Counted from the first letter of the stretch, positions 53,195 to 62,885 are shown. The stretch: 64,000 nucleotides of DNA from Giardia intestinalis (GCA_000002435.2 CM018793.1); one strand, 5' to 3'. Translations and numbers: made by a program. Notes: generated from the letters alone by a model not told the origin.

Positions 53195-53196
53195 TC

Positions 53197-53229
53197 ACTC
53201 CACTATCATACTATCACCCTCTATCACAC
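53197..53229 (-). repeat. Inter-unit short tandem repeat, GTGATAR-type (about 3 copies) in the VSP 3' UTR or spacer
   Basis: Plus strand reads 'cactccactatcatactatcaccctctatcacacc', which on the sense strand is GTGATAGAGGGTGATAGTATGATAGTGGAGTG. This is near-identical to 55505..55538. Confidence 0.6.
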
Positions 53230-53240
53230 CATTGTACAGC

Positions 53241-53247
53241 ATTCACT
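53241..53247 (-). terminator. Putative Giardia polyadenylation signal AGTGAAT (AGTRAAY) after the remnant stop
   Basis: Plus strand 'attcact' 53241-53247 is the reverse complement of AGTGAAT. It lies 8 nt 3' of the stop codon TGA (plus 'tca' 53255-53257). Confidence 0.55.
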
Positions 53248-53254
53248 ACCCAAG

Positions 53255-53350
53255 TCACGCCTTCCCCTGCACACGAACCACCAGCAGAGGAAGCCCACGA
53301 GGCCCCCACGACGAGCGACCACAGCCACGAGACCCCACGCGATGGAGACC
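53255..53350 (-). pseudogene. Remnant of a VSP 3' end (diverged, frameshifted TM helix + CRGKA + TGA)
   Basis: Reverse complement reads '...tgggggcctcgtgggcttcctctgctggtggttcgtgtgcaggggaaggcgtga'. Apart from a 1-nt deletion this matches the intact '...ggg ggc ctc gtg ggc ttc ctc tgc tgg tgg ttc gtg tgc agg ggg aag gcg tga' (GLVGFLCWWFVCRGKA*). Upstream of about 53350 the similarity to VSP stops. Confidence 0.65.
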
Positions 53351-54230
53351 CGCATTGGAGAGCCCGCCCCTGGTGTGGTACTTCATAGACACACAGGAGG
53401 TCCCACTGCTGTCTAGACTGTACTCCCCAATACGATACCACTTACCGCCTACACTTCAACGCTCATCTCGAACCACACAAGCATACTTGATTCGCTCCGA
53501 TCGCCCTAGCGACGAAGACGGACCTTCTAATCGTCGATACAACACCCTAACACACCTCGTTGTTACTTGACCTCAATACGTGTCACATACATACAGGTGA
53601 CAATGATCGCAGGCACAAGATGCATAGCCCGACCCCTGCACTTCAGAATGCATATGCGGGGTCCCCCGCCAAACATGACGGCGCCACTCCCACCACAGCT
53701 GCTGCAGAAACATATATAATCTCGATAGATAAGGGCTATCAAACCTGAGACGTCGGAGAGTCCGCAATCGGAAGAAAGAACGGAAGGCCTGACGCGTAAG
53801 AGTAGCAAATGCGCATCAATCCGTGAGAGAACCTTCGTGCGCGCCACGAGAAGCCCAGTAGAGCTCTTACAATAGCCAAACGCCTCACAGGAGATGACTA
53901 TTGAACCTGATAACATAATGAGCGATTAGTGAGCACACCACAGCGGGACCATATGACGAGCCAGAACCATGACACTCAGAAAATTCAAGCAAAGTTGTTT
54001 CCTTAGTAGATAGGTGCTACTATTGTTCGTCAACCTGCAGAGTTAACACTACAGCGGTCCAGATGGATACAGCAGCCAGTTTTGAGACAGTGACAAGTGT
54101 CGTGGATCTTTCATCCGAACTTCTAGATTATCCAATATGAATGTCACTGAGTCGTCAAACCCTAACGAATAAATAACCGAACATAACTCACCTACGGGAC
54201 CAGCAATAATGCAGTGTAAGCAAACGCGCA
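53351..54230. other. Non-VSP DNA of unknown origin (about 880 bp, lower GC) interrupting a VSP unit
   Basis: No CXXC-rich reading frame on either strand. Only short ORFs of 62-117 aa with no recognisable family. The base composition is clearly less GC-rich than the flanks. One side is the truncation point of the 378-aa VSP fragment (54231..54240) and the other is the TM/CRGKA remnant (53350). Confidence 0.5.
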
Positions 54231-60569: not shown

Positions 60570-60570
60570 A

Positions 60571-60614
60571 CTCCACTATCACCCTCTATCACCCATTATC
60601 ACACACTATCACAC
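60571..60614 (-). repeat. Inter-unit short tandem repeat, GTGATAR-type (about 4 copies)
   Basis: Plus strand reads 'ctccactatcaccctctatcacccattatcacacactatcacac'. Confidence 0.65.
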
Positions 60615-60624
60615 ATTGTATAGC

Positions 60625-60631
60625 ATTCACT
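60625..60631 (-). terminator. Putative polyadenylation signal AGTGAAT after the TGA of the complete VSP
   Basis: Plus strand 'attcact' 60625-60631. Stop 'tca' 60639-60641. Sense strand reads GGG AAG GCA TGA ctcaggtAGTGAATgc. Confidence 0.6.
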
Positions 60632-60638
60632 ACCTGAG

Positions 60639-62885
60639 TCATGCCTTCCCTCTACATATGAACCACCAGCAGAGGAAGCCCACGAGGCCCCCCACGACGA
60701 CGACCACAGCGACGGAGATCCCCGCGATGGCCCCCGTGGAGAGCCCGCTCCTGTTGGTGCCAGAGGACACACACATGCCATCCCTCGGGACATAGCCCTC
60801 CTCGCACTCCCCGCAGACGCCCTCTGCGCTGCACCGCATGCACCTCTCTATGTCACAGACAATGCACTGGGTGCCGTCCAGGCTGGGTCTCTGGTCTTTA
60901 TTGGTACATGCCTCACACTTGTTGTCTGCGCTGCAGTGAGAGCAGCCCTGGGCCGGACACACATAGCAGGTGCTTCCAGCCATGTTGGGCTTCTTATTGT
61001 CCTCAGCACACACCTCGCACATCCCGTCGATGGCGCAGCTCTTGCACCCGCCGACCGCACACAGGGTGCACCCGCTGCCATCCTTGTTGGGCTTCTTCGT
61101 CTTGTCGCACGCACTACAGACCGCCGCGGCCATCGCATTGGCGGCTGGCGCCTGCGGGGCCGCGCACGCCGTGCAGTCTAGCACGCCGACGTACGCCTTG
61201 TCGCCCGCGGTCGCTCCCACAGGGTTGCCACAGGCAAGCACGGACTGCTGAGCAGCAGAGTCCCCAGGAATCTTGAAGTAGCGCCCGACCGGTGTGGTGC
61301 AGAACCCACTTGGAGCCGCAGAGCACATGAGGTTGCCAGGAGCCTTCGACACATCATAGCAACCACCCATATAGAGGAAGTAGTTGTTGGTGCACCGCGT
61401 ACATACGCCATCGGCGCAGGTATTACCTGCAAGTGCATTGGTGCACTTCCCATTAATAGGGCCATAGCCGGCGCCAACACACTTTGAACAGTAAGAGAGC
61501 ATGCTGCCGTCGTTGCCGACCACGATGGCGTCGCAGGCCCCTGCTGTCCCCCCGCATGCAGTCTCATCTTCACAGGTCTTTGTACACGTATAGTCATCCC
61601 CTGCTCCTCCATTGGACTGCTTCTTATAGTTAGGCTTACATTCAGTGCACTTAAATCCACCGTTGCTAGAACATAGACTGCACCCTTCGCGGCCACCATC
61701 TGGTGTACTGTCGCATGCAGCACACTTCGTTTCACCCTCGGTTTTTAGGAAGTACCCAGGAAGGCACTCAGTACAAGTTGACACATCAGCTGACGTGCAG
61801 GTGGCACAGTTGGAGGCACAAGCCGAACAAGTCTTTGATGACTGTTCAAAGAAGTATCCATCCAAACAACTTGTGCATTCTGGTTTCTGACTTTGCTGCT
61901 TAGTACATGTCTTACACCCGGCAATCCCCTTATCGTTTGCGCCAGCGCCAGGGGACGCATCGCCGCAAAGGGCGCATGTGGTATCGTCCTTCATAAATAA
62001 GGCCCCGTCAGCGCCCTTGCACCCGTCAAGCGTTTTATCGACGCAGGTCGAGGTCCCATCAAGGGTCGTCCTGGGGGTCTTCTGACTACCGCAGGCTGTG
62101 CACTGAGGCTTCCCCGTGGCCTTGTCGAAGGAGCATTCTGTGCAATCAGTTATTGTACTACATGCCTTGCACTTCCCCGACTCTGGGTCAGGATAAACGG
62201 TGTTTGTGCATTCTCCTTCTGCCACACAGCTATTGCCGTCCTTCAGATAGAAGCCCGCTTTACAAGAGGTACACTGGGTCGCCGATGTCTCACAAGTGGC
62301 GCAGTTCCCCTGGCATTGTACACATGCGCCTTTAGCATCTTTATAATATCCATCTTGGCATTCTGTACACGTGGCAGCCCCCTTGTTACTGTCTGACTTG
62401 GTACACTGTGCGCAGTTCTCTACTCCCGTATATCCATCTGCTCCCTTGATATCAGAGCACAGGATGCACTCACTACCAGGCTTCGGTGCTGTAGCCGGGT
62501 TCTTGAACAGGCCGTTATCTGTCTTACAAGTAGTACACACTCCATCACTGGCCTTTGTACATATCTCACTGCCAGGATCTTGTCCTACCTTGTAGCACCC
62601 TCCCATGAAGAGGAAGTACCCGTCGCCGCACTTCCCGCAGGTGGTTGCCGTCTTGTCGAGGGTAGCCCCGTCTTCCTCGGTGCACCCGGCTGCCGCGGCC
62701 TGGGGGGAGCCGGGGGGCCAGCAGAAGCCGTCGACCGGGACGCCCCCGGCCCTGCACTGGGTGCAAATCTCGGTGGCCCCGACCGTCTCGCACTTATTCT
62801 GTGCGCAGGTCGCTGTATGGTTCCCGTCTGGCTGGCAGGCCGCCATGAGCGCGCTCGCCACGAACAGGGGTATCAGTTGGAACAT
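60639..62885 (-). CDS. vsp: Complete variant-specific surface protein (VSP), 748 aa: signal peptide, Cys-rich CXXC/GGCY ectodomain, TM helix, CRGKA tail
   Basis: ORF 60639..63074 (-) contains an internal Met followed by a classic signal peptide 'MFQLIPLFVASALMAACQ' (ATG at plus 62883-62885). The 63 codons upstream are a G/R/P-rich ORF extension with no signal peptide. The protein has about 12% Cys as CXXC, GGCY motifs ('GYFLFMGGCYKV', 'NNYFLYMGGCYDV') and ends 'GLSTGAIAGISVAVVVVVGGLVGFLCWWFICRGKA'. An AGTGAAT polyA signal lies 8 nt after the stop. This matches the established architecture of Giardia VSPs. Confidence 0.85.
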   Translation of the reverse strand: MFQLIPLFVASALMAACQPDGNHTATCAQNKCETVGATEICTQCRAGGVPVDGFCWPPGSPQAAAAGCTEEDGATLDKTATTCGKCGDGYFLFMGGCYKVGQDPGSEICTKASDGVCTTCKTDNGLFKNPATAPKPGSECILCSDIKGADGYTGVENCAQCTKSDSNKGAATCTECQDGYYKDAKGACVQCQGNCATCETSATQCTSCKAGFYLKDGNSCVAEGECTNTVYPDPESGKCKACSTITDCTECSFDKATGKPQCTACGSQKTPRTTLDGTSTCVDKTLDGCKGADGALFMKDDTTCALCGDASPGAGANDKGIAGCKTCTKQQSQKPECTSCLDGYFFEQSSKTCSACASNCATCTSADVSTCTECLPGYFLKTEGETKCAACDSTPDGGREGCSLCSSNGGFKCTECKPNYKKQSNGGAGDDYTCTKTCEDETACGGTAGACDAIVVGNDGSMLSYCSKCVGAGYGPINGKCTNALAGNTCADGVCTRCTNNYFLYMGGCYDVSKAPGNLMCSAAPSGFCTTPVGRYFKIPGDSAAQQSVLACGNPVGATAGDKAYVGVLDCTACAAPQAPAANAMAAAVCSACDKTKKPNKDGSGCTLCAVGGCKSCAIDGMCEVCAEDNKKPNMAGSTCYVCPAQGCSHCSADNKCEACTNKDQRPSLDGTQCIVCDIERCMRCSAEGVCGECEEGYVPRDGMCVSSGTNRSGLSTGAIAGISVAVVVVVGGLVGFLCWWFICRGKA

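Follow-up and report, generated by a model that had tools for sequence, protein, structure and literature searches.

Behind a complete gene for a variant-specific surface protein (VSP) of Giardia intestinalis stands a row of further VSP copies that possess no start codon, and the question posed by this locus is what such copies are: genes expressed by an unusual route, silent donors of sequence to expressed VSPs, debris of earlier genes, or products of the assembly. The locus lies in a window of 64,000 nucleotides (GCA_000002435.2, CM018793.1), the term window denoting the whole stretch of DNA analysed, in which non-N sequence is confined to positions 51833–64000 (∼12.2 kb); the VSP array lies entirely on the minus strand and adjoins a 51.8-kb N run (1..51832, no strand) that represents an assembly gap. 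The locus is very probably a VSP linear array, also termed a pseudo-VSP array, of G. intestinalis WB-C6, of a kind already catalogued. Its repeat unit reaches from codon 106 of a VSP to ∼50–70 nt past the stop codon, is present in at least four copies behind the head gene, and so takes in a transmembrane (TM) helix, the CRGKA tail and a GTGATAG-rich spacer as well as the extended poly(A) signal.

The head gene and the start-less units behind it

The head gene, unit 1 (60639..62885, minus strand), encodes a complete VSP of 748 amino acids plus stop, as determined from its open reading frame (ORF) and translation (Pfam accession: PF03302, E = 3.4e-43), with a hydrophobic N-terminus MFQLIPLFVASALMAAC, 34 CXXC motifs, a TM helix and a CRGKA tail. 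The protein is 100% identical to KAE8304683.1, XP_001705078.1 and UniProt A8BSC1 of Giardia intestinalis WB-C6, the scaffold of KAE8304683.1 being 4,018,654 bp in length. A regular-expression scan identified a candidate initiator, TAATGTT, across the head-gene ATG (62881..62887, minus strand), corresponding to the PyAatgTT motif defined in Adam et al. 2010 (PMC2996952), and this is the only PyAATGTT on the array strand within the 12.2 kb. The combination of an ATG, a PyAatgTT initiator and a signal peptide (signal peptides being judged by hydropathy), by which complete VSPs are recognised after Xu 2020 and Rodriguez-Walker 2022, was found in unit 1 only; units 2–5 lack it and are thus pseudo-VSPs.

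Unit 2 (57495..60575, minus strand; 1026 open codons plus stop; PF03302 E = 1.1e-83) starts with W-S-V-I-C-T-K-A, ends in CRGKA and has its first in-frame Met at codon 284, while unit 3 (55563..57425, minus strand; 620 open codons plus stop; PF03302 E = 7e-39) likewise ends in CRGKA, with a first in-frame Met at codon 194. Unit 4 (54231..55511, minus strand) is both start-less and 3′-truncated, its 426 codons ending ..SAAQQKRG* at a premature stop at 54231 and its first in-frame Met lying at codon 49 (55367). Unit 5 (51833..53202, minus strand) begins with W-S-E-I-C-T-K-A at the common junction and ends at the N run. PF03302 matches above the gathering score were obtained for units 1–4, and the Cys-rich ectodomain characteristic of the VSP family is evident in a cysteine content of 12.3–13.1% with 21–45 CXXC motifs per unit. 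In units 2–4 there is no in-frame ATG near the start and no hydrophobic stretch after the first in-frame Met. A TM helix, CRGKA and the poly(A) signal ACTYRGRTAGTRAAYRY are present together in units 1, 2 and 3, unit 4 being truncated and the end of unit 5 lying in the gap; of the downstream units, only 2 and 3 possess all four elements intact, namely the TM helix, CRGKA, the stop and the extended poly(A) signal.

The initial annotation, which described a complete VSP (62885->60639) followed by at least four units on the same strand, is confirmed in this respect by the ORF calls and, for units 1–4, by PF03302; the lack of an ATG or signal peptide downstream is likewise upheld by the Met positions, the hydropathy and the sole initiator at unit 1. 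The further statement that each unit keeps its TM helix, CRGKA tail, stop and poly(A) signal is borne out in units 2 and 3 but fails for unit 4, which is truncated, and for unit 5, which is frameshifted and cut by the gap. Exact look-ups in the protein collection returned no record for the first-Met or GTG-start versions of units 2 and 3, which is what pseudogene annotation would give but is no independent confirmation of unit 2.

All downstream units had been described as beginning at one internal point, and they do: a 28-mer, GATAGTGGAGTG[T/A]GATATGCACAAAGGC, is present without mismatch at four of the four downstream junctions (exact matches at 60580–60553, 57430–57403, 55516–55489 and 53207–53180, minus strand), against 0.00 expected (100 shuffles). 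Every downstream ORF opens right behind a TAG, with TGG-AGT-G(T/A)G-ATA-TGC encoding W-S-V/E-I-C-T-K-A, in agreement with the described fusion of the units directly behind TAG-TGG-AGT. The matching internal site of unit 1 is located at 62555..62578 (minus strand; codons ∼104–111, ..P-G-S-E-I-C-T-K..), and a MAFFT alignment comparing this site with the four junctions puts the breakpoint at unit 1 codons 105/106 (S106-E107-I108), 8 residues past the GGCY motif (95–98). The residue given previously, ∼166, is ∼60 too high, a discrepancy that would be explained if residues had been numbered from 63074, in the upstream stop-to-stop ORF. Microhomology is observed at the breakpoint, where GATCCTGGCAGTGAGATATG in the coding sequence of unit 1 is similar to GATAGTGG-AGTG(T/A)GATATG at the end of the spacer.

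The gaps between a stop and the next sense codon measure 63, 69 and 51 nt, in place of the ∼75-bp spacing first stated, and at the head of all three spacers stands the extended poly(A) signal of VSPs (ACTYRGGTAGTGAATGC). In spacer 1 (60576..60638, minus strand; 63 nt), this signal, ACTCAGGTAGTGAATGC, begins within the stop codon and is followed by 10-bp repeats of the GTGATAG type, with 7 in-frame stops including the terminator; spacer 2 (57426..57494, minus strand; 69 nt) combines the signal with GTGATAG repeats and 9 in-frame stops, and spacer 3 (55512..55562, minus strand; 51 nt) contains the signal and 7 in-frame stops. Units 1–4 (54234–63074, minus strand) stand in one reading frame, all three spacer lengths being multiples of three, an arrangement with a chance of about 1 in 9 that is probably not meaningful.

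The spacer repeat of ∼10 bp (GTGATAGNGG type) was detected at 57430–57468 and 60573–60617 (TRF period 10, ∼4 copies), and appears in translation as ‘..SDSDS..’ where older gene models were made for other WB arrays. Among the homologues retrieved, the units of those other WB arrays start ∼18 codons further upstream (‘..DSDS..L(L/F)FMGGCY’), with the spacer translated in the old models, indicating that the spacer is common to arrays with differing junction points. Many ‘partial’ units retrieved from other G. duodenalis isolates start at ‘VNDPAGVSIDSLCRP’. With other arrays having other start points, the shared internal point appears as a trait of this array type and not as a universal VSP recombination site.

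Mosaicism and probable constraint across the units

Self-BLAST comparison of the units revealed an alternation of conserved and divergent sequence, the junction blocks (the last ∼120 bp of coding sequence, the spacer and the first ∼125–250 bp of the next unit) being 83–96% identical, with unit cores 72–78% identical or unalignable. The most conspicuous exchange involves a 345-bp tract in unit 4 (54243..54587, minus strand), which is 98.8% identical to positions 61245..61589 (minus strand) inside the expressible head gene (self-BLAST, base-by-base check); the two copies differ at 4 positions, all synonymous and without gaps, and both flanks are unalignable. The tract stops exactly where unit 4 breaks into non-VSP DNA, and its 5′ edge is spanned by XP_001703836.1, a protein of the 2007 Sanger assembly. 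The core of unit 4 (residues 33–323) is identical at 290/291 amino acids to XP_001703944.1, a unit of another WB array with another junction type, and is divergent on both sides. Unit 4 is consequently a three-part mosaic of an array-type 5′ block, an XP_001703944.1-like core and a 3′ tract in common with unit 1, and the signs of segmental exchange reported at the outset are substantiated by this composition together with the 345-bp tract. Patches of 100% identity with other WB paralogues are found in units 3, 4 and 5.

The pairwise synonymous divergence of the units (dS) ranges from 0.97 to 2.0 and is saturated, with ratios of non-synonymous to synonymous divergence (dN/dS) of 0.21–0.30 (Nei–Gojobori) that are rough at dS >1. 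In a simulation with 5% neutral substitutions, the ORF of unit 2 stayed open in 0/500 trials and that of unit 3 in 2%. Saturated dS, low dN/dS and long open ORFs together indicate that the units did not diverge from each other as silent DNA in place; we infer that unit content was shaped under protein-level constraint and was brought into, or refreshed in, the array recently. Such a history points to recombination of the units with expressed VSPs on an evolutionary timescale, the direction of which is not given by the sequence.

Reservoir, sink and other readings of the array

Arrays of this construction have been documented in the same genome. More than half of the vsp genes of WB are in linear arrays whose neighbouring members may overlap or lie up to 241 bp apart, the mean spacer being 60 bp; an upstream region and PyAatgTT are often found at the first member, no downstream member has an initiator, and the arrays were explicitly proposed as recombination cassettes (Adam et al. 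2010, BMC Genomics 11:424, PMC2996952). These linear arrays correspond to the pseudo-VSP arrays of Xu 2020: head-to-tail, with ∼60-bp spacers, downstream members without an initiator or proper start that are thought to be unexpressed, a frequent position at contig ends, and mosaic relations within and between arrays, as here. The present locus has the same composition, with five head-to-tail units on one strand separated by spacers of 63/69/51 nt, and a first member that possesses an upstream non-coding region and an initiator, the rest being without initiator. No categorical difference from the WB linear arrays was found; the codon-106 breakpoint and the argument from dN/dS and ORF survival, which the array papers cited here do not set out, are refinements. 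The G. muris genome paper describes non-transcribed pseudo-VSP arrays with signs of gene conversion, likened to the archives of T. brucei and Pneumocystis (Microb Genom 6:mgen000402, PMC7641422). Those arrays share tandem VSP copies without signal peptide, read as a reservoir, and signs of recombination or conversion with intact VSPs; they differ in being almost all telomere-adjacent, with 5–23 genes and a CRGK tail, whereas G. intestinalis arrays are mostly chromosome-internal. Incomplete VSPs have also been termed a ‘sequence reservoir’ in a 2022 preprint (10.1101/2022.03.07.483299). Both the architecture and the idea of silent recombination cassettes were accordingly published in 2010 and again in 2020–2022, and the cassette architecture, called notable in the initial annotation, is not new (PMC2996952, PMC7641422, 10.1101/2022.03.07.483299). 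The present locus adds a little to these accounts: the exact breakpoint, the unit 4 mosaic, the argument that the start-less ORFs were not left to decay in place, and a gap edge that is probably of low quality.

The anatomy of the array suggests a sequence of events in which the unit boundary would have been made once, by a tandem duplication with breakpoints in short similarity between spacer (GATAGTGG-AGTG) and coding sequence (GATCCTGGCAGTG). The array would then have grown and been reshuffled by unequal crossing-over and by segmental gene conversion swapping the unit cores, for which the conserved ∼300–440-bp junction block may serve as a homology arm in both processes. Independent LINE-like, 5′-truncated retro-copies with ends close to the poly(A) site were rejected as the source of the units, the four truncation points being identical to the base and denoting one propagated junction. 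The downstream units are predicted to be transcriptionally and translationally silent pseudogenes, with unit 1 alone expressible, because they have no initiator, ATG or signal peptide, lie behind upstream poly(A) signals and 7–9 stops per spacer, and show no Giardia-type splice signals.

Several points weigh against this account. The silence of units 2–5 is predicted from sequence, and non-transcription of pseudo-VSPs has been reported for G. muris (PMC7641422), not for this locus. A single origin of the junction, as proposed here, has to be set against the use of other junction points in other arrays, and the saturation of dS above 1 makes the dN/dS ratios rough. The direction of transfer between units 1 and 4 is not readable from one genome snapshot, and since the 3′ edge of the 345-bp tract lies at a non-homologous break, a complex rearrangement or an assembly chimera fits that edge equally well.

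The likeness of the array to the vls locus of Borrelia burgdorferi, msp2 of Anaplasma and the VSG archive of T. brucei is architectural only, comprising one or a few expressible genes, promoterless 5′-truncated silent copies set between conserved sequence, and segmental mosaicism. In those systems, experiments have demonstrated that segments are converted in one direction into a unique expression site and that this is how switching proceeds, in contrast to Giardia, where more than 130 complete VSPs nearly all have an initiator and switching is described as epigenetic. An active silent-cassette system, with units 2–5 as frequent segmental donors to the head gene or other VSPs driving antigenic switching, would explain one expressible gene with start-less copies between conserved blocks, the near-identical 345-bp tract with synonymous differences only between expressible gene and silent unit, and the ORFs of units 2 and 3, intact though start-less; within-isolate structural variants are, moreover, enriched at VSPs (Pollo et al. 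2020, PMC7048089). Promoterless, start-less copies flanked by conserved sequence are indeed present, but a single or few expression sites are not: WB has 133–136 complete VSPs, with an own initiator in 135/136 (PMC7000408; 10.1101/2022.03.07.483299), many complete WB VSPs were also returned by homology search, and a repertoire of ∼133–136 complete genes, nearly all with their own initiator, argues against a single expression site. In the published view, VSP switching is epigenetic and not a matter of DNA rearrangement (Adam et al. 2010, PMC2996952); between WB-C6 and Be-2, both AI isolates, striking synteny is reported in the distribution of VSPs (Baptista et al. 2024, PMC11169602); the unit 1 protein is unchanged between the 2007 and 2020 WB assemblies; and the 4 substitutions in the 345-bp tract indicate an event that is not very recent. 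Such a system is very improbable at this locus, and of the initial description of start-less donor cassettes behind an expressible gene the structure stands, while nothing in the window shows a donor role in switching or programmed cassette switching, one snapshot giving neither direction nor timescale. A working archive, from which pieces of the silent units would pass by copying to the head gene or to other complete VSPs as clones grow or in the course of infection, is improbable; if true, new mosaic VSPs would represent DNA-level diversification added to epigenetic switching, and this traffic would have left its traces in the 345-bp tract and in the selection-like signature that the start-less ORFs display. 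The opposite possibility, non-functional debris that captures copies of functional VSPs through unequal recombination and conversion and gives nothing back, corresponds to the leftovers from discarded vsp genes put forward as an alternative by Adam et al. 2010 (PMC2996952), and is conceivable, if rather unlikely. Neither unit 4 nor unit 5 is whole, the array contains a stretch of foreign DNA, expression signals are absent, and recent one-way import from expressed genes would explain dN/dS <1 and open ORFs equally well, yet the tract common to units 1 and 4 places an expressible gene in the exchange, direction aside, and unit 5 may look decayed only through sequencing error. A sink is not separable from a reservoir with one genome, and whether the array is a useful reservoir or a mere sink is not decided by its sequence.

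An assembly artefact, in which each unit would in reality be a complete gene of its own, or the array a repeat that was collapsed or chimerically joined, is suggested by the 51.8-kb N gap adjoining the array, by the last ∼1.6 kb, which departs from its relatives mostly by indels, by PBJelly gap extension and Chr5 gap joins without read support in the source assembly, and by the abrupt break of unit 4 into unrelated DNA. Against this, the sequence derives from a 200x PacBio, Illumina-polished source; units 1–4, with cores ≤78% identical, differ too much for a collapse; an independent assembly, that of 2007 from Sanger reads, contains unit 1 at 100%, unit 3 at 425/427 amino acids (XP_001705784.1 of the 2007 annotation, compared from the first Met) and unit 4 including its mosaic edge; and the spacer-to-unit architecture also occurs inside old WB gene models of other arrays. 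An artefactual origin of the array as a whole is thus hardly credible, and for units 1–4 it is very unlikely. Expression of the downstream units, whether by splicing of a 5′ exon (signal peptide plus 105 residues), read-through, or internal or non-AUG initiation, would be compatible with the four ORFs in one reading frame, a GTGAGA after unit 1 codon 105, an AG before each unit and dN/dS <1, and is nevertheless extremely improbable, each unit standing behind a strong VSP poly(A) signal and the internal Mets being without signal-like hydrophobic segments. Splicing of the 5′ part of unit 1 onto the units was rejected as unsupported, the Giardia-type 3′ intron motif CTRACACRCAG occurring nowhere on the array strand; joins at candidate GT/AG pairs break the frame or create a TGA (alignment read by eye), and stop-codon read-through was rejected on account of the 7–9 in-frame stops in each spacer.

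The reading of the locus as a catalogued linear array of silent units behind one expressible gene leaves a question of some consequence: if pseudo-VSP arrays feed expressed VSPs, the repertoire would be open-ended and not fixed at ∼136 genes, which bears on vaccine design based on the VSP repertoire. The window neither raises nor settles this question, the hypothesis having been in the literature since 2010. Its practical value, which is smaller, lies in a clean, fully resolved example of an array, in which the breakpoint is exact, one unit is a mosaic and start-less ORFs are open, and in a warning that the WB reference is probably of low quality at the gap edge.

Gap edge, interrupting DNA and flanking sequence

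The WB-C6 reference was generated from 200x PacBio data and an optical map, with Illumina polishing; non-overlapping contigs were joined via N runs whose lengths follow the optical map, and gaps were extended with PBJelly (Xu et al. 2020, Sci Data 7:38, PMC7000408). Chr5 gap joins of this assembly have since been reported to be without long-read support (Baptista et al. 2024, PMC11169602). Given the 200x PacBio source, concern over mis-assembly of the array is largely met, except for the ∼1.6 kb beside the gap (51833–53420), where differences from the closest relatives are mainly indels. The gap-side junction aligns with junction 3/4 over 187 bp at 95.7% identity, the 3 mismatches being outnumbered by 5 gap openings (self-BLAST), and the distal 930 bp of unit 5 are an indel-riddled copy of sequence of the VSP S7 (AAN52102.1) or XP_001705627.1 type, a frameshift-aware alignment of this segment with VSP S7 requiring 15 frameshifts and 30 missing residues at 226/301 identical codons. 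Because of this indel-dominated pattern, the gap-side stretch has the look of a contig end with a poor long-read consensus, or of PBJelly extension, rather than of natural decay. The true length of the array and the sequence beyond it are hidden by the N gap, into which the array may run on.

Non-VSP filler of ∼810 bp (53420..54230, minus strand) interrupts the array 3′ of unit 4. It gave no match in Pfam or Rfam, is not repeated in the rest of the window and holds an ORF of 117–120 codons (53925–53563); an insertion, the scar of a rearrangement and a chimera made in assembly are all conceivable origins. It is followed by a frameshifted remnant of a VSP 3′ end (53255..53419, minus strand), comprising ..SGLS.., a TM helix, VCRG(K)A and TGA, behind which an extended poly(A) signal is intact (53255–53239). 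An Rfam scan of the 12.2 kb (E ≤ 0.1) gave no match, and hence no rRNA fragment at the gap edge or known RNA in the 810-bp filler, and an inverted-repeat search of the sequence found none.

The ORF of unit 4 from its first Met is annotated as KAE8304682.1, ‘High cysteine protein’, an accession adjacent to KAE8304683.1; this protein-coding annotation is probably wrong, since the ORF plainly belongs to a pseudo-VSP of the array that is truncated and has neither a signal peptide nor a TM helix. In another Giardia isolate (GCA_000498735.1, AHHH01000189.1, positions 1–3860), a contig end carries a partial VSP, and 45 bp behind it comes a VSP-like ORF of 701 amino acids. It was rejected as a comparable array, the second gene having its own leader-like segment (LLAIYLAVGALAAAC) and thus being head-to-tail but not start-less.

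Upstream of the head gene, positions 62886–64000 are GC-rich (62–69%) and without a recognisable gene; more than 1.1 kb here is devoid of Pfam matches, including within a 171-codon ORF, and this gene-poor stretch agrees with reports of gene-poor surroundings of VSPs.

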